This document shows, in pieces, positions 286 to 26,671 of a stretch of 64,000 nt of DNA; position 1 is the stretch's first letter; every line of letters begins with the position of its first letter. The notes beneath the pieces are model-generated. The model was given only the letters and a program-made list of their open reading frames with translations, did no database searches and had not been told where the DNA came from. Source of the DNA: Escherichia phage ukendt. Made by a program: the position numbers and the translations under genes. The stretch is from sequence record NC_052661.1. One strand, 5' to 3'.

Positions 286-690
286 TTATTGAAGTTTAAG
301 TGAACCACGAAGACGTTTCTCTTGCTGATCACGGATATATTGTGGAACCTCGTGAATTGAATCATTACCGTGCCTATTTTCAACAACTAAAGAGATAACT
401 TGATAACCAAACTCTTCAGCAAGAGCTAGATAAGGTTTAAGTTCTTTCTCTGTGGTTGAAGTATTAGAAACAATAATCTTGTTAAGATTAGATGCCATAG
501 CATCACGAACAATACCCTGACACCATGCGTGTGCTTTACCTACATTTTCTGGCTTCCAATCGTAAACACCACTCTCTGTGTAATGATATTGATCTGCCTC
601 ACAGATAGGCCAATAACCTTCAGAAATAATTTCTGCTACTGTAGATTTACCAGCACCTGAAACGCCACGTAAAATGATAAGTTGTTTCAT
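286..690 (-). CDS. P-loop kinase (polynucleotide/nucleoside kinase-like)
   Basis: Walker A GVSGAGKST near N-terminus; 134 aa; last gene of a kinase-ligase-phosphoesterase operon. Confidence 0.6.
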   Translation of the reverse strand: MKQLIILRGVSGAGKSTVAEIISEGYWPICEADQYHYTESGVYDWKPENVGKAHAWCQGIVRDAMASNLNKIIVSNTSTTEKELKPYLALAEEFGYQVISLVVENRHGNDSIHEVPQYIRDQQEKRLRGSLKLQ

Positions 691-1623
691 TTATCCTCCA
701 AAAAAGTTTTCGATTTTTTCACGTCGCTCTTGCTGATTTAAAGCAGCCCATTGAATCTTCGTAAAATTATTTCGAATCCATTCTAACAAAGCGTAATATT
801 CTTCGTCAACCATTTGTTTGGCATTTTTTGGATTATCCCAAATCAGATCCCACTTTTTATCTCCACCGCGCATAAGAAACTTCTTAGTAAGATAGTGTGG
901 TGATTTAATTTTTAAAAGTAAGTTGAACGGATAGTTTGTTTCACGAACTACAAACCCTTCGTGTTTACAATGTTTAGACATTTCAACAACATCTGAAAAC
1001 TTAACCATTGGATGAACTTCAGGACGCTTAAATTTGGTGACAGAAGCAATTCCATCAAGAGCACCTTCAGGTAACATAAAACTTGTCCCATCAGGATTTT
1101 GAATTCTGGCACCAATTAAGTATGCACCTGGTTCTTCTTCGACAATATGCGGATCAGAAGGATCACAGATTTCAAAAAGGAAAGTTGCTTTTGCGCTCTC
1201 TGTCCATTTGATGAAATGTTCTATGTCATCACACTCTGAAACAATATGATTCTTTGCAATACTTGCAAAATCTGATTCAAGGCTTCCTGTTGTCGATACA
1301 ATAAGTTGACCTTTATATACACCTACAGAGGCCATAAAACCATTTACTTTACGAACCACATCTACAAGTTCATCCGCTGGTAGATCTGTGCCATTCTCAA
1401 AACGATTAAAAATCTTAGTGAAAGGCCAAATAACAACATTGTCATCAGCATCAACAACGATTCCGCGACATTCTAGAAGACGAGAATCAATGCTCCATAA
1501 GTTATCCCAGAAAACTTTGTTCTTATACTTAAGAACAGATAGACCAGAATACTCTCCTTCTTTATATGTTTTCTTATGAACTAAACCTTTTTCAACCAAA
1601 TCGTCGCAATTAAATTTAGTCAC
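691..1623 (-). CDS. ATP-dependent RNA ligase-like nucleotidyltransferase
   Basis: Covalent nucleotidyltransferase motifs in canonical order and spacing: RKVNGF (motif I lysine), HEGFVVRE (motif IV), LLKIKS (motif V); stop/start abut flanking genes. Confidence 0.55.
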   Translation of the reverse strand: MTKFNCDDLVEKGLVHKKTYKEGEYSGLSVLKYKNKVFWDNLWSIDSRLLECRGIVVDADDNVVIWPFTKIFNRFENGTDLPADELVDVVRKVNGFMASVGVYKGQLIVSTTGSLESDFASIAKNHIVSECDDIEHFIKWTESAKATFLFEICDPSDPHIVEEEPGAYLIGARIQNPDGTSFMLPEGALDGIASVTKFKRPEVHPMVKFSDVVEMSKHCKHEGFVVRETNYPFNLLLKIKSPHYLTKKFLMRGGDKKWDLIWDNPKNAKQMVDEEYYALLEWIRNNFTKIQWAALNQQERREKIENFFGG

Positions 1624-1624
1624 A

Positions 1625-2176
1625 TTACTCTCCTTTGATTATTTTGTGATGGTCTACAGTCACGATATCTCGTTTACTCATCATAGAAATTATCTCATCA
1701 AAATGCAAGATTTTTCCGTGTGCATCCCAACCCACATCTAACATTTTACCATAAGCTTCATCAGGGAAAGATCCGTGGGAATGCCCATGTAGCATGATTG
1801 ATCCACGACCTTGTTTATTCCAGGAGGCAATAGGGTAATGACTTAAGACGAAGAACAGCTTCTGGTATTTCACTTCGTCATAATACACCACTTCGCCATA
1901 CTCTGCAAGCACTTCTCGGTGTTTGCTGTAGTCATGGTTCCCAACACAGTAGGTGATATCTCCTTGGAGACGGGAAGCAATTTTACGGGTATCTTCTTCA
2001 GTTCCGAAACAGAAGTCGCCCAAATGCCACATCTTAACACCAGGAGTAGTAGCACATTTGTTCCATGCTTCGATCAAGGCTTCTGTCATGTGGTCCATAT
2101 CTTCCCACGGACGATATTCAGGAGCAAACTCTCGAATACGTTTATGCATAAAATGCAAATCGCTTGTAATAAACAT
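1625..2176 (-). CDS. calcineurin-like metallophosphoesterase
   Basis: DLHF, HLGDFCFG, VGNHDY and LHGHSHG motifs in the order typical of the metallophosphoesterase fold; 183 aa. Confidence 0.7.
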   Translation of the reverse strand: MFITSDLHFMHKRIREFAPEYRPWEDMDHMTEALIEAWNKCATTPGVKMWHLGDFCFGTEEDTRKIASRLQGDITYCVGNHDYSKHREVLAEYGEVVYYDEVKYQKLFFVLSHYPIASWNKQGRGSIMLHGHSHGSFPDEAYGKMLDVGWDAHGKILHFDEIISMMSKRDIVTVDHHKIIKGE

Positions 2177-2532
2177 TAGTATAATCCCTCGCTAAATAAT
2201 TCATGATCGTGACCATTACGCTCATGGTCGATCTGGTCAGCATTTTCCGCGATGATGTAAGCATCCGCACGACTCCACCAATTGTAATACTGATCGATAA
2301 AGCCTTGATTATCTGGTGTGCACAAAGTTTTGTTGATTACACCTGCTTCTTTCAACACGTTTAACTGTGCATATAGTACAGGATTTGCATGTCGAACACA
2401 AGGAATAATTAACTCTTCACCATTATTCAAAATATACTTATTTGCAGCACAGACGATAACACGTTGCGCATAATGACCCTCACCCATCCAGGTAAGAGGT
2501 TGGTAACAAATATTGTTTTCAATACCACTCAT
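2176..2532 (-). CDS. hypothetical early protein
   Basis: 118-aa ORF, start overlaps stop of downstream gene; no recognisable motif. Confidence 0.4.
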   Translation of the reverse strand: MSGIENNICYQPLTWMGEGHYAQRVIVCAANKYILNNGEELIIPCVRHANPVLYAQLNVLKEAGVINKTLCTPDNQGFIDQYYNWWSRADAYIIAENADQIDHERNGHDHELFSEGLY

Positions 2533-2691
2533 TGTTTCCTAATCCTCCTCTCTTAAGTTATCCTCGAAAAAACTAGTGTCTGGAAGTAAAAGATCATTAC
2601 TTGTGTCGGGCCAATCCTCTTCTTCTCGGTAGATAAAGTAACCTTCGTCCTCTTCTTGTTCCGACCAAACCGAATGATGCATGTTCTCTCC

Positions 2692-3048
2692 TTAATAGTG
2701 CACACGAATCATTTTAATACCATAACGCAGCATGGATTCTTTTGCAAGCATGAATTTATCCCCAGCGGCGGGATTAGAAGTATGCACGAAAATGGTAGGT
2801 GAACCAAAGCAAGGTTTACCAAACGCCAAAAGTTCTTCCAGGCGCAGGAAAACATCATACCCATCTTGGTCAGAATCTTCACCCAAATCGTTGTCAAAAT
2901 GCCACTCGTCTACAAAACGATAACCCTTCTGCACCTCGTTCATGTAGCGAGAGGCAAGAAGTTCCTGTGATGTTTTAAACCAGATTGCATCTGGACAACC
3001 ATAATCTTTTGGATCACGTAAATCATCAAGCCAAATAATAGTACCCAT
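2692..3048 (-). CDS. hypothetical early protein
   Basis: 118-aa ORF in the co-directional early block; function not recognisable. Confidence 0.4.
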   Translation of the reverse strand: MGTIIWLDDLRDPKDYGCPDAIWFKTSQELLASRYMNEVQKGYRFVDEWHFDNDLGEDSDQDGYDVFLRLEELLAFGKPCFGSPTIFVHTSNPAAGDKFMLAKESMLRYGIKMIRVHY

Positions 3049-6881: not shown

Positions 6882-6956
6882 GTCTTTATGGTGTAATGGA
6901 TAGCACAGGAGTCTTCTAAACTCTTAGTCAAGGTTCGATTCCTTGTAAAGACACCA
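6882..6956 (+). tRNA. tRNA-Arg (anticodon TCT)
   Basis: Acceptor GTCTTTA/TAAAGAC, anticodon loop CTTCTAA, T-arm CAAGG-TTCGATT-CCTTG, encoded CCA. Confidence 0.75.
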
Positions 6957-7028
6957 GAACATTTTAACATGAATTAGCTCAAGTGATTTGAACCCACTAC
7001 TGATCATGGTGGCAGAGAATGAGGTAAG

Positions 7029-7100
7029 TATGTCAGACATTATAAACAAAGGCCACGGTTATATTAGAAGACATAAATGCTCGAAGAGCACCGTTCGCTG
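7029..7100 (+). CDS. possible 23-codon micro-ORF between tRNA blocks
   Basis: ATG 7029 with GAGG 5 nt upstream; MSDIINKGHGYIRRHKCSKSTVR; may equally be untranslated spacer or RNA. Confidence 0.15.
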
Positions 7101-7152: not shown

Positions 7153-7182
7153 TTGACAACTAACACTATTTTATGTTAGATT
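7153..7182 (+). promoter_or_regulatory. sigma70-like promoter (TTGACA, 18 nt, TG-extended TAGATT)
   Basis: Exact -35 at 7153..7158; predicted start site a few nt before tRNA-Ser at 7191. Confidence 0.5.
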
Positions 7183-7190
7183 ATAAGCAT

Positions 7191-7281
7191 GGAAGGGCAA
7201 ATCGACGTGGCGACGAAAACGGTCTTGAAAACCGCCGAGCTTGAAAGAGCCTTGGGAGTTCGACTCTCCCTCCTTCCGCCA
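7191..7281 (+). tRNA. tRNA-Ser (anticodon TGA), type II
   Basis: Acceptor GGAAGGG/TCCTTCC, anticodon arm ACGGT-CTTGAAA-ACCGC, long variable arm, T-arm GGGAG-TTCGACT-CTCCC, G73, CCA. Confidence 0.7.
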
Positions 7282-7285
7282 GATT

Positions 7286-7371
7286 GGTAGATTGGTGAAA
7301 TGGTAGCCACGACAGTTTGCTAAACTGTAGTCGGAAACGGCGTGTAGGTTCGAGTCCTACATCTACCGCCA
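7286..7371 (+). tRNA. tRNA-Ser (anticodon GCT), type II
   Basis: Acceptor GGTAGAT/ATCTACC, anticodon arm ACAGT-TTGCTAA-ACTGT, long variable arm, T-arm GTAGG-TTCGAGT-CCTAC, G73, CCA. Confidence 0.75.
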
Positions 7372-7501
7372 AGTTCTTTTTAATGTAGCTTACTTTAGCA
7401 GAGTAAATCTTCGGCAAGTGGCGGTAACCACTTTACCGATACCTCATAGTTAGTGGTGTGAACACTGGCTATTTTAAAAAGAATTTAAATATTAGTATTT
7501 A

Positions 7502-7589
7502 GGTGAGTTAATTCCGTAGGGGTAGCGGGGCAGACTGTAAATCTGTTATCATTGCGATTCGGGTGGTTCGACTCCATCACTCACCACCA
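7502..7589 (+). tRNA. tRNA-Tyr (anticodon GTA), type II, with atypical 5' region
   Basis: Acceptor GGTGAGT/ACTCACC perfect, anticodon arm GCAGA-CTGTAAA-TCTGT, A73, CCA; junction between acceptor and D-arm is longer than canonical. Confidence 0.5.
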
Positions 7590-7595
7590 AATTAA

Positions 7596-7681
7596 GATGA
7601 GTTGGCTGAATGGTTTAAGCGGCGGACTGTTAATCCGTGTTCGAAAGAACAATATAGGTTCGAATCCTATACTCATCGCCA
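7596..7681 (+). tRNA. type II (long variable arm) tRNA with anticodon GTT; isotype ambiguous (Ser-like body, Asn anticodon)
   Basis: Acceptor GATGAGT/ACTCATC, D-stem GCT/AGC, anticodon arm GCGGA-CTGTTAA-TCCGT, variable-arm hairpin GTTC-GAAA-GAAC, T-arm ATAGG-TTCGAAT-CCTAT, G73, CCA. Confidence 0.55.
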
Positions 7682-7688
7682 GAATTAT

Positions 7689-7765
7689 GGACTTGTAGAG
7701 TTAAGGTAAACCCCCAGTCGCCAATAGGCTTCTGGAATTGCAGGTATCGAATCCTGCCGAGTCCC
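7689..7765 (+). pseudogene. tRNA-like remnant (acceptor and T-arm-like pairing, no canonical anticodon arm)
   Basis: GGACTTG...CGAGTCC acceptor-like pairing, T-like GCAGG-TATCGAAT-CCTGC with 8-nt loop, no encoded CCA, no 5-bp/7-nt anticodon arm found. Confidence 0.25.
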
Positions 7766-7771
7766 AGCATT

Positions 7772-7846
7772 GCTCCTATAGTATAATGGCTATTACAACG
7801 GTTTTGTAATCCGTGGATCTCTGTTCGATTCAGTGTGGGAGCACCA
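7772..7846 (+). tRNA. tRNA-Thr (anticodon TGT)
   Basis: Acceptor GCTCCTA/TGGGAGC with one G-U pair, anticodon loop TTTGTAA, T-loop TTCGATT, encoded CCA. Confidence 0.65.
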
Positions 7847-8118
7847 ACACAACATTAAGAGCACTGTGATTGATCGTCGTATCCTGTGCACAAGGTCTGC
7901 TCGAAAGACAGTGTTCTTAGTATTGTGTTGATCACAAAAAGAGTCACCCGAAACTTGACCGGAGTAGGGTTGGATGGGGCAAAATGAGAAGCGGCTCTCC
8001 CATCGACAGCAACGAAGAATAATATTTGACTTTGGTTTTGTATTATTTAAGTTAGCTTACCGAACGTAGGGCTAGTCACCCAACGGGATACTCGTCACTG
8101 TCCCAATCAATAAAAGTC

Positions 8119-9229: not shown

Positions 9230-9369
9230 TCCCTCTCCTCTCTTGGGGCTTTGCCCCTCCTCCTTGTTATTTTTAACACCCCTCTCCGAAAGGTTAGGGG
9301 CTTTTTTATTTTTAATGCTTGCAATTGTATATCATTTTGTGATAAGATCAGATATGAGGAGGATAAAAT

Positions 9370-25237: not shown

Positions 25238-25651
25238 GTGACAACTTATTCTAAAACAACAAGGTCTACAAGTAATACAGGCTACAGTGCAGTTTATCTA
25301 GAGGACCATTCTACTTATTTTGCATGGTACCTGAAAACTGAAGAGTATCCTGATCAAACATATACAGTTACATTGGATGGAGTTGATTATGACATTCGTT
25401 TAAGGTGGAACACTAGGGACGAGTCTTGGCAATGTCAGATTGGATTATCTGGAGATGATCCAAGTATAAGTTTCAAAGTTACAAATGGTTTAGATCTTCT
25501 TAAACCTTATAAATATCTTGAAAGTGTGCCAGATGGTCAATTGTATATAGTAGATACAGTTAAGATTAATGGTCGTCCTGGGTATACAACTACAGGTCGA
25601 GATAAACGTTTTGTATTGGTTTATATTGATAACAAACCTAATCAGGCGTAA
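25238..25651 (+). CDS. hypothetical tail/baseplate protein
   Basis: 137-aa ORF tightly packed in the baseplate block. Confidence 0.35.
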   Translation: MTTYSKTTRSTSNTGYSAVYLEDHSTYFAWYLKTEEYPDQTYTVTLDGVDYDIRLRWNTRDESWQCQIGLSGDDPSISFKVTNGLDLLKPYKYLESVPDGQLYIVDTVKINGRPGYTTTGRDKRFVLVYIDNKPNQA

Positions 25652-25660
25652 GGAGATAAT

Positions 25661-26671
25661 ATGGCAGAAAGAGAGTATACAAAAGCTCCTGCCCCTAATT
25701 TAAACAGGGCATACAAATTATTAATTGGTTCTGCCACAAACACAATACAGAAGAGAACTAAGAACTCGGCATTTAAATCTACAGTAGATTTGGATACCAA
25801 GTTAGGAACAACAGAAAAATCCTCTTCTAATTTGTATTTGTTGCAAGACCATCAAATAACCTTCAGTATTAAGAAAGATAATAACAAAGATCCTAACCAA
25901 GCAGAGATTGTAGTTTATAACCTTTCGGATGATACTGTTAACTATATAAACCGTGGTATCCGAAATAACTTGGCTGTTGCTTTAGCGGTAGGATACGAAG
26001 GTGAAGAGTTGGTTATGGTCTTCAAAGGAACTATCCAGTGGGTTAGTGATACTTTTGACTCGGTAGACAGGAAAACCACTTTACACTGTTTGGATGGCGG
26101 TATTAACATTGCAGAAGCAAGAACAAGCCGCAGTTATCCAAAAGGAACTAAAATCAAACGTGTTGTGACAGATTTGGTAAAGGATTTAGGAACTACAGAA
26201 GGTAATATACACGTAGATAATGATCAAACCTTATCCTCAGCAACAGCTATGTGTGGAAACACTTCACATTACCTAGAACATATTTGTAAAAGTATTGATC
26301 ACAATGTGTCAATACAAGATGGATCTGTTTATGTCACTCCTCGTTCACAAATGTCTAGTGCACGTAGCGCCTACATTAGCCCTGAAACTGGTCTGATAGG
26401 AAGTCCAGAACCATTCCACAACGATATAAAACCTACTAAAAAAGTTACCAAGTCATCTAAGAAGGCAAAGAAACCTACAGATGGTGTTAAATTCAAATGC
26501 CAAATGAATGGTGCAATATTACCAGAAAAAACAATCTGGTTAAAAAGCCGAGATTATGATGGTCCATTTAAAGTTGTTTCTGTTTCTCACAATGGTGATA
26601 AAGAGGGTAAAGAGTGGGTTACTGAGGTGGAGTGTGTATCCGTGTCTGAAATAATGACTAAGGAGAAATAA
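25661..26671 (+). CDS. baseplate hub-like protein (tentative)
   Basis: 336-aa ORF between tape measure and spike-like gene; position-based call. Confidence 0.35.
   Translation: MAEREYTKAPAPNLNRAYKLLIGSATNTIQKRTKNSAFKSTVDLDTKLGTTEKSSSNLYLLQDHQITFSIKKDNNKDPNQAEIVVYNLSDDTVNYINRGIRNNLAVALAVGYEGEELVMVFKGTIQWVSDTFDSVDRKTTLHCLDGGINIAEARTSRSYPKGTKIKRVVTDLVKDLGTTEGNIHVDNDQTLSSATAMCGNTSHYLEHICKSIDHNVSIQDGSVYVTPRSQMSSARSAYISPETGLIGSPEPFHNDIKPTKKVTKSSKKAKKPTDGVKFKCQMNGAILPEKTIWLKSRDYDGPFKVVSVSHNGDKEGKEWVTEVECVSVSEIMTKEK

Follow-up and report, generated by a model that had tools for sequence, protein, structure and literature searches.

A tRNA gene with an asparagine anticodon and a long variable arm in Escherichia phage ukendt

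To our knowledge, textbook accounts restrict the long variable arm to the transfer RNAs (tRNAs) for leucine, serine, bacterial tyrosine, and selenocysteine (Sec). Here, we analyzed a tRNA gene of Escherichia phage ukendt in which such an arm occurs together with the asparagine anticodon GUU. The gene lies at positions 7596-7681 on the plus strand of the window, by which we mean the whole 64,000-nucleotide (nt) stretch of sequence record NC_052661.1 that was analyzed. Its closest described counterparts are the canonical bacterial tRNA-Asn(GUU), represented by Escherichia coli asnT, and the bacterial class II tRNA-Ser, represented by E. coli serV, serW, and serU and by the tRNA-Ser genes of the phage itself. 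The former has the class I architecture, with a variable loop of 4-5 nt (5 nt in asnT) and a D stem of 4 base pairs (bp). The three E. coli tRNA-Ser genes have an arm with a 5- to 7-bp stem and one unpaired 3' base, an 11-nt D loop, and a 3-bp D stem, and tRNA-Ser is characterized by an NGA or GCU anticodon and by the set G73, G1-C72, and G2-C71.

Nematode nev-tRNAs have a variable arm and Gly or Ile anticodons and are charged with leucine. Bacterial or phage allo-tRNAs, like the gene studied here, join a class II-type arm to the anticodon of an amino acid normally carried by class I tRNAs, and among three tested allo-tRNA suppressors one inserted Ser and the others mainly Ala (PMC5389517). 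Both groups possess discriminator and acceptor features of the arm-type synthetase, in contrast to the family of long-arm tRNA-Asn described below, with its Asn-type acceptor, normal 7/5 acceptor/T geometry, and status as the only Asn tRNA of its arrays. The tRNA-Lys, tRNA-Thr, and tRNA-Asn of phage T5, which escape the nuclease AriB of the PARIS defense system, resemble the window gene in being encoded in a tRNA cluster of a virulent phage, in belonging to a nuclease-targeted isotype, and in differing structurally from the host isoacceptor; their differences are substitutions in the anticodon stem-loop (PMC12409363), whereas the window gene has an unchanged anticodon arm and an altered body. 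A description of long-arm tRNA-Asn was not found in the searchable full-text literature, and an earlier one is possible since most subscription papers lie outside it; the PARIS study, which handles phage tRNA-Asn, never mentions the variable arm (PMC12409363).

ARAGORN called a tRNA-Asn(gtt) of 86 nt with exactly the boundaries given above. The gene is composed of the following parts:

7596-7681 (+), whole gene: class II tRNA with anticodon GUU, G73, and encoded CCA (ARAGORN; Rfam RF00005; tRNA-Asn label in 99%-identical Phapecoctavirus genomes)
7596-7602 (+), 5' strand of the acceptor, GAUGAGU, pairing with ACUCAUC at 7671-7677; G1-C72, A2-U71, U3-A70 (ARAGORN brackets; covariation in the family)
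7605-7620 (+), D arm GCUGAAUGGUUUAAGC: 3-bp stem including C11-G24 and 10-nt loop with G18 G19, of class II or Ser-like type (comparison with E. coli serV, serW, and serU)
7622-7638 (+), anticodon arm GCGGA-CUGUUAA-UCCGU, the same as E. coli asnT positions 27-43; the flanking G26 likewise matches (alignment with asnT of NC_000913.3)
7629-7631 (+), anticodon GUU, which reads AAC/AAU (ARAGORN; Rfam alignment)
7639-7653 (+), variable region of 15 nt: 4-bp stem GUUC/GAAC with GAAA tetraloop (7639-7650), then unpaired AAU (7651-7653) (fold, ARAGORN, covariation)
7654-7670 (+), T arm AUAGG-UUCGAAU-CCUAU (ARAGORN; covariation)
7678-7681 (+), discriminator G73 (7678), then encoded CCA (7679-7681) (sequence; G73 in 110 of 111 family members)

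The Rfam tRNA model (RF00005) matched 7596-7678 from end to end with 62.1 bits (gathering score 29; E = 4.8e-11), and its alignment contains a standard 7-nt loop CUGUUAA, the anticodon GUU, and ~12 bases inserted in the variable region. A 7-bp acceptor, the D, anticodon, and T arms, and the 7-nt anticodon loop were recognized by both ARAGORN and Rfam, and the minimum free energy (MFE) fold is a cloverleaf with an additional hairpin, GUUC-GAAA-GAAC. U8, A14, G18 G19, a GUUCRA T loop, and the 3' CCA can be read from the sequence; with G73 and the U33 and A37 of the 7-nt loop, the features used in translation are retained. These results bear out what a first inspection of the letters (the sequence-only reading) had proposed, namely, that G73, a GTT anticodon, and a hairpin in the variable arm are combined in a tRNA of type II, and no program put the anticodon elsewhere, an outcome that this reading had named as refuting it. 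An alternative register with an 8-nt loop or another anticodon was ruled out by ARAGORN and the Rfam alignment, and an intron was ruled out as well, the insert being a 12-nt hairpin within the variable region.

By its architecture the gene is a class II tRNA, since the variable region of 15 nt (>10 nt in this class) contains an evolutionarily kept paired arm with a 4-bp stem; its anticodon GUU, however, lies outside the class II isotypes Leu, Ser, bacterial Tyr, and Sec. With asnT, it shares the GUU anticodon and G73, and its anticodon arm and G26 are identical; in addition, most family members carry asnT-type pairs at the acceptor end (U1-A72, C2-G71, C3-G70; counts are given below), and a homologue from an Erwinia phage shares the D arm. 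It differs from asnT by its 15-nt hairpin-forming variable region, 3-bp D stem, 10-nt D loop, G9, G1-C72, and A2-U71. With tRNA-Ser, it has in common a GNRA-capped long arm, G73, G1-C72, C11-G24, a D stem of 3 bp, and a D loop of similar sequence, but it departs from tRNA-Ser in its GUU anticodon, its tRNA-Asn anticodon arm, A2:U71 in place of G2:C71, a 4-bp stem followed by three unpaired bases, and a 10-nt D loop (a 4-bp stem is likewise found in the tRNA-Ser(GCU) of this phage). The Ser-like body noted in the sequence-only reading holds in part, for the D arm and acceptor in this phage, although the SerRS determinant G2:C71 has given way to A2:U71. The gene lacks defining tRNA-Ser features (anticodon, G2:C71, arm geometry) as well as the class I architecture common to all described tRNA-Asn; on a class II build, it would function as a tRNA-Asn.

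The window belongs to a Phapecoctavirus. Over the 800 bases surrounding the gene, it shares 98-99.4% identity with many genomes of this genus (ESCO5, ESCO13, and phAPEC8 relatives), in which the gene is annotated as tRNA-Asn. Within the genus the gene is 97.7-100% identical, and the phAPEC8 copy differs at two positions, both unpaired (variable-region tail and T loop). Ten tRNAs are annotated in ESCO5, all in one cluster and including one Asn, and ARAGORN found no second tRNA-Asn in positions 1-50,000 of ESCO5 or in the window. In a blastn search with the 86-nt gene, 232 phage records gave full- or near-full-length matches labeled tRNA-Asn and 756 gave partial ones, the matches reaching Erwinia and jumbo phages. 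Among the phages fetched, a long-arm tRNA-Asn(GUU) is encoded by the T5-like Epseptimavirus SB9, the T4-like Karamvirus CC31 and Winklervirus CBH8, Justusliebigvirus SD2, and the Tequintavirus members Bas32 and Bas33 of the BASEL set. These homologues are 83-86 nt long and possess G73, CCA, and the same anticodon stem (the Bas32 loop has U32 and not C32), and their variable-arm stems vary in a compensatory manner (GUUC/GAAC, AUCC/GGAU, GUCA/UGAC, GUC/GAC, and GAAC/GUUC).

When 2.9 million viral contigs were scanned for a T loop lying at class II distance behind the Asn anticodon arm, 117 metagenome contigs matched, and the long-arm tRNA-Asn sequences in them, 91 of which are distinct, have very diverse bodies; the canonical-length Asn matches in viral contigs include many that are probably host attachment-site tRNAs. 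The same scan applied to one genome per species for 185,579 bacterial and archaeal species gave 26 pattern matches, ~16 of which are real long-arm genes. Approximately 10 of the latter lie within arrays of 7-36 tRNAs (e.g., in Micromonospora and Verrucosispora), and the others are lone genes on contigs of metagenome-assembled genomes. By blastn, 5,426 complete E. coli genomes, together with their prophages, contained no long-arm tRNA-Asn, the only match being a spurious one of 28 nt. Given this near-absence from cellular genomes and the wide occurrence in phages, long-arm tRNA-Asn is a form of phages and mobile tRNA arrays rather than of the core tRNA sets of cells. That the gene is real and conserved we regard as practically certain.

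Covariation was assessed in an alignment of 31 diverse members sharing the 15-nt variable region, with 500 shuffles and slid pairing partners as controls. Standard pairs occupied 94.8% of the pair cells, compared to 65% in shuffled alignments and 33-45% with partners slid, and the covariation score was 0.744 versus 0.178 in shuffles; none of the 500 shuffles reached the observed values. All seven acceptor pairs covary, and all four pairs of the variable arm have changed on both sides, with pairs 2-4 being 97-100% paired and represented by three to five pair types each. No variation occurs at G18, at G19, or in the T-loop columns. In the Erwinia-phage homologue, compensatory changes are found in the variable, T, and acceptor stems. 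Across 111 distinct family members, the arm typically consists of a 3- to 4-bp stem followed by three to four unpaired bases; most often, the D arm has the class II form, with a 3-bp stem, a 9- to 11-nt loop, and often G9. GNRA tetraloops cap 52 of the 83 hairpins that could be parsed, 34 of them with GAAA. The 15-nt design of the window gene (4 bp, GNRA loop, 3-nt tail) occurs in 37 members and is mounted on very different bodies, with Asn-like, Ser-like, or Tyr-like D arms.

The amino acid carried by this tRNA was approached through its identity elements. The E. coli asparaginyl-tRNA synthetase (AsnRS) recognizes the three anticodon bases and G73, a set that can be transplanted into another tRNA body, whereas seryl-tRNA synthetase (SerRS) ignores the anticodon, depends chiefly upon the tRNA's variable arm, and in E. 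coli reportedly recognizes the tertiary shape of tRNA-Ser (PMC9976931). The G2:C71 pair is described as absolutely conserved in E. coli tRNA-Ser, C2-G71 is an antideterminant against E. coli SerRS, and U1-A72 is a determinant for GatCAB in the amidation of Asp-tRNA-Asn, which is needed in hosts lacking AsnRS (PMC9976931). In the window gene, the AsnRS set G34 U35 U36 plus G73 is complete; U1-A72 is replaced by G1-C72, and the host of this phage has AsnRS. Charging by tyrosyl- or leucyl-tRNA synthetase (TyrRS or LeuRS) was rejected, as G73 is an antideterminant for both (PMC9976931). The 111 long-arm tRNA-Asn were compared with 115 canonical tRNA-Asn from similarly collected viral loci and with 149 phage tRNA-Ser:

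U1-A72: long-arm Asn, 81 of 111; canonical Asn, 88 of 115; Ser, rare (G1-C72 in 133 of 149)
C2-G71: long-arm Asn, 52 of 111; canonical Asn, 62 of 115; Ser, rare (G2-C71 in 136 of 149)
C3-G70: long-arm Asn, 50 of 111; canonical Asn, 58 of 115; Ser, rare (A3-U70 in 127 of 149)
G73: long-arm Asn, 110 of 111; canonical Asn, 112 of 115; Ser, 104 of 149

A position-specific scoring matrix over the acceptor, positions 8-9, and the T arm was used in preference to whole-molecule covariance models, because in the latter the variable arm and the anticodon arm would dominate in opposite directions. With leave-one-out controls 84-93% correct, the matrix classed 75 of the 111 members as Asn, 20 as Tyr, 9 as Ser, and 7 as Leu. 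In arrays covering almost all amino acids, the long-arm gene is the only Asn tRNA (32-36 tRNAs in Micromonospora; 18-23 in Erwinia and Justusliebigvirus-like phages). The Erwinia-phage homologue has the same acceptor type and the 15-nt arm design of the window gene, and its D and anticodon arms are identical to E. coli asnT positions 9-43 at 32 of 35 nt. Based on these asnT-like arms, the lineage is better described as a tRNA-Asn that would have acquired the arm, together with a class II D arm in certain branches, than as a tRNA-Ser with a changed anticodon.

Several observations weigh against asparagine as the amino acid. Scored by the matrix, the acceptor and T arm of the window gene are nearer to Ser (-29.0) than to Asn (-43.0). 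Its D arm UGGCUGAAUGGUUUAAGC resembles the E. coli tRNA-Ser D arm UGGCCGAGAGGCUGAAGGC, its acceptor GAUGAGU resembles the GGUGAGG of E. coli tRNA-Ser, and, with G1-C72, C11-G24, G73, and an arm of the size found in the phage's own tRNA-Ser(GCU), these Ser-type features imply that SerRS could compete. Class II synthetases approach the tRNA from the side of the variable loop, where an extra arm might hinder AsnRS. Moreover, ~10 loci hold both a long-arm and a canonical tRNA-Asn, hinting at differentiated roles. On the other side, the two tRNA-Ser of the phage, which likewise have 4-bp, GAAA-type arms, both keep G2:C71, and the homologues from Justusliebigvirus (GAUGGAU) and the Erwinia phage (GACGAGG) share the A2:U71 of the window gene despite differences elsewhere in the acceptor. 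Taken together, the sequence evidence leans clearly towards Asn, and of the three options raised in the sequence-only reading (charging by SerRS, an unusual Asn tRNA, or a decaying duplicate), the second is the best supported. The gene is probably an Asn-accepting class II tRNA, and we consider it quite probable that it is charged with asparagine.

A comparison of T5 with its relatives suggests how the two forms of tRNA-Asn are related in practice. In T5, tRNA-Asn is encoded by a type I gene of 78 nt whose anticodon stem is mismatched (6953-7030 in the T5 sequence, L271). At the same slot of the Cys-Asn-Asp order, Bas32 (7805-7887 in L272) and Bas33 (146-231 in L273) encode the long-arm form, and the 3' flank in Bas32, aaattctgtgtaga, is identical to that of T5. 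In view of the shared slot and the identical flank, the type I and long-arm genes look interchangeable, as in a cassette-like swap of apparently equivalent genes. The idea that the T5 tRNA-Asn, which helps to rescue PARIS toxicity, might itself be of the long-arm type was rejected given its 78-nt type I structure, and the PARIS experiment is not direct evidence for the long-arm tRNA.

We propose that the gene encodes a functional elongator tRNA that would decode AAC/AAU and supply Asn decoding in an AT-rich phage, most likely after charging with asparagine by host AsnRS via the GUU anticodon and G73. The frequency of Asn codons is 59.7 per 1000 codons in the long open reading frames of the window (the genome has 39% G+C), and other tRNAs of the phage (Thr UGU, Gly UCC, Gln UUG, and Arg UCU) fit the heavily used codons ACA, GGA, CAA, and AGA; this codon usage and the matching tRNAs fit a supply role for the Asn tRNA. 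The family is built on a class II scaffold with a usually GNRA-capped hairpin of 3-4 bp, three to four unpaired bases, and a class II-type D arm, and its conserved extra arm would give a benefit specific to phages. Most plausibly, the arm would make the body of the tRNA unlike that of host tRNA-Asn, such that nucleases or other factors gripping the anticodon stem and the D-loop region could not disable it, while the host-identical anticodon arm would preserve AsnRS recognition and decoding. This explanation as a whole, with a working Asn-accepting class II tRNA at its center, we regard as likely. The genomic context relevant to it is the following:

286-3048 (-), RNA repair cassette: AAA_33 kinase (286-690), T4 Rnl1-type RNA ligase PF09511 (691-1623), calcineurin-like metallophosphoesterase (1625-2176), and cREC_REC cyclic-phosphate-processing receiver-domain protein (2692-3048) (Pfam; ESCO5 annotation)
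7153-7182 (+), TG-extended sigma-70-like promoter, TTGACA-18-TAGATT, lying upstream of the tRNA sub-cluster with the Asn gene (consensus match only)
7191-7846 (+), co-oriented tRNA sub-cluster: Ser(UGA)-like 7191-7280, Ser(GCU) 7286-7371, Tyr(GUA) 7502-7589, Asn(GUU) 7596-7681, tRNA-like element 7689-7766, and Thr(UGU) 7772-7846 (ARAGORN, Rfam)

The Pfam-identified RNA repair cassette adjoins the tRNA cluster just upstream of it. Phage T4 uses a kinase/Pnkp and Rnl1 enzyme set to heal anticodon-nuclease damage, and the gene set at 286-3048 resembles this system. The window Asn gene lies between Tyr and Thr(UGU), and the order in SD2 is Lys(UUU)-Tyr-Asn-Thr(UGU). AriB has been shown to target E. 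coli tRNA-Asn(GUU); it cuts the anticodon stem at 40|41, its second subunit is predicted to read the D loop, and tRNA variants of phage T5 neutralize it (PMC12409363). The repair cassette, the targeting by PARIS, and the tRNA neighbors together point to a conflict over tRNAs. In the long-arm family, the host anticodon arm is kept, the D loop is changed, and an added helix emerges beside position 44, within a few nucleotides of where AriB cuts, which makes a steric or shape-based escape plausible.

However, the anticodon arm of the window gene, including the AriB site U36AAUC|C41, is the same as in E. coli asnT, whereas the resistant T5 tRNAs carry substitutions there. The Bas33 and Bas34 results of the PARIS work are ambiguous, and the effect of the long-arm tRNA-Asn was not isolated in them (PMC12409363). 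Sporadic long arms also occur in other phage isotypes, and the arm could be a tolerated structural variant. A protective role of the arm, by steric or shape-based escape from host tRNA-directed nucleases, is thus offered tentatively, as a possibility short of even chances. A bolder conjecture, which appears doubtful to us, is that phages have evolved a fifth class II isotype in which the Ser-style arm serves as a disguise; it would keep tRNA-Asn-directed immune nucleases (PARIS AriB-like, PrrC/RloC-like, or colicin E5-like) off an AsnRS-charged tRNA or, more radically, would let SerRS charge the tRNA, so that infection would partly recode Asn codons as Ser.

The main alternative to a protective arm is a neutral or entrenched variant, in which a hairpin insertion or a recombination between neighboring tRNA genes was tolerated by AsnRS and spread horizontally among phages with no specific benefit. 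Arrays of tRNA genes are recombination-prone, type I and long-arm forms have been swapped at one locus in the T5 relatives, and long variable arms are found sporadically in other class I isotypes of phage arrays (Cys, Trp, Thr, Lys, Glu, Met, Gly, and Pro), amounting to 52 of 980 tRNAs in loci chosen for long-arm Asn and 17 of 621 in loci chosen for canonical Asn. Such a variant accounts less readily for the retention of one 15-nt design on unrelated bodies and for the near-absence of the long-arm form from cellular core sets; among the class I isotypes of the sampled loci, only tRNA-Ile(UAU) is long-armed at a rate comparable to Asn. We view this explanation as possible but rather unlikely.

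A second alternative treats the gene as a natural mistranslator, for which the long arm and G73 make the tRNA a SerRS substrate and Ser is inserted, alone or beside Asn, at AAC/AAU during infection. It draws on the Ser-type features described above, including G1-C72, C11-G24, a Ser-like D arm and acceptor, an R4-Y69 pair, and a 4-bp GAAA arm as in the two Ser tRNAs of the phage, as well as on the reliance of SerRS on the arm and not the anticodon (PMC9976931). Phage tRNA-Ser typically has GNRA caps (67 of 119 parsed hairpins), as does long-arm Asn, and the coexistence of canonical and long-arm Asn tRNA in some phages is compatible with it. Family-level evidence does not support charging by SerRS. 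The pair G2:C71, which 136 of 149 phage tRNA-Ser genes and both such genes of this phage possess, is A2:U71 in the window, Justusliebigvirus, and Erwinia-phage genes; the Asn/GatCAB determinant U1-A72 and the SerRS antideterminant C2-G71 mark the Asn-type acceptors of most members; and the arm is shorter than in E. coli and most phage tRNA-Ser (3-4 bp versus 5-7) and ends in three unpaired 3' bases rather than one. The asnT-like D arm of the Erwinia-phage homologue and the role of the long-arm gene as sole Asn tRNA in near-complete arrays speak in the same direction, and with Asn codons at 6% of phage codons, heavy Ser insertion would harm the phage's own proteins. Mistranslation therefore seems unlikely.

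Still less probable is a non-translational decoy, whose host-identical anticodon arm would titrate or inhibit tRNA-Asn-directed nucleases or another host factor with little decoding. The exact identity of the anticodon arm to that of host asnT and the tRNA-repair context, which fits a conflict over tRNAs, are in its favor, and the PARIS authors propose competition as a way in which some viral tRNAs, when overexpressed, may inhibit AriB (PMC12409363). Yet all translation features are conserved, the family retains Asn-type acceptor determinants such as U1-A72, the gene is the sole Asn tRNA in complete arrays, and the demand of the phage for Asn codons is high. Finally, a pseudogene or decaying duplicate of the nearby tRNA-Ser(GCU), suggested by the one-base difference between GCU and GUU and the common length of 86 nt, can be virtually dismissed, as the two genes are only ~66% identical, the Rfam score is high, changes within the genus are confined to unpaired positions, and conservation and compensatory changes across phage families had already refuted it.

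A conserved, covarying, and phage-confined class II tRNA-Asn breaks the textbook rule on long arms, and the interest lies less in the single window gene than in the family that it reveals. The arm is the main recognition handle of SerRS, and this family offers a natural test of how substrates are partitioned between AsnRS and SerRS. A candidate strategy in which the body is changed and the anticodon arm kept joins the picture of phage tRNAs as counter-defense tools. Long-arm tRNA-Asn is present in tractable phages, such as BASEL Bas32 and Bas33 (HildyBeyeler) and T4-like and phAPEC8-like phages. For annotation, tRNA-Asn calls of 81-91 nt are genuine and not artefacts.

The neighbors of the Asn gene show peculiarities of their own. 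The tRNA-Ser(GCU) anticodon indeed differs from GUU by one base, but the adjacency of the two genes stated in the sequence-only reading does not hold, as the immediate upstream neighbor is tRNA-Tyr(GUA) (7502-7589), with Ser(GCU) at 7286-7371. This tRNA-Tyr gene (+) scored 39 bits with Rfam and was missed by ARAGORN; it ends 6 nt before the Asn gene, and its acceptor GGUGAGU differs from the Asn GAUGAGU in one pair. An origin of the Asn gene from tRNA-Tyr, considered in view of these acceptors and a similar 3-nt tail, was unsupported family-wide, with 20 of 111 members being Tyr-like and GNRA caps present in 2 of 22 Tyr arms. At 7191-7280 (+) lies an unannotated tRNA-Ser(UGA)-like gene with G1-C72, G2-C71, A3-U70, G73, CCA, the arm GCUU-GAAA-GAGC, and an aberrant D arm, which was missed by ARAGORN and whose sole Rfam match was to the tRNA-Sec model (37.4 bits, below the gathering score of 47). 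The tRNA-like element at 7689-7766 (+) has a 7-bp acceptor-like stem and a T-arm-like hairpin, lacks a normal D or anticodon arm, and folds with a z-score of -3.4; a degenerate tRNA and a processing element are both possible identities for it. Positions 7847-7945 (+), which separate tRNA-Thr from the next promoter, hold a long, imperfect inverted repeat (aacacaacattaagagcactgt ... acagtgttcttagtattgtgttg) that may be a structured stable RNA like those of the T5 tRNA region.

Additional observations were made outside the window. In ESCO5 (L269), positions 25294-25866 encode a 190-amino-acid "histidyl tRNA synthetase" that is far short of a full-length enzyme and may be a tRNA-binding fragment. 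A Justusliebigvirus-like viral contig (L052) contains, at 9301 (-) inside a 23-tRNA cluster, a 75-nt tRNA with the anticodon CUA that resembles an amber suppressor and was labeled Pyl by ARAGORN. A long form of tRNA-Ile(UAU), 91-96 nt in length and in many cases with an AGAUUA/AGAUAA-type loop motif, was found in 16 of 26 viral tRNA-Ile(UAU) genes (e.g., L014 5224(-), L018 1697(-), L020 9355(+), L040 7444(+), L096 12394(-), and L130 5454(+)), and it may represent a second recurrent non-canonical class II tRNA in phages.

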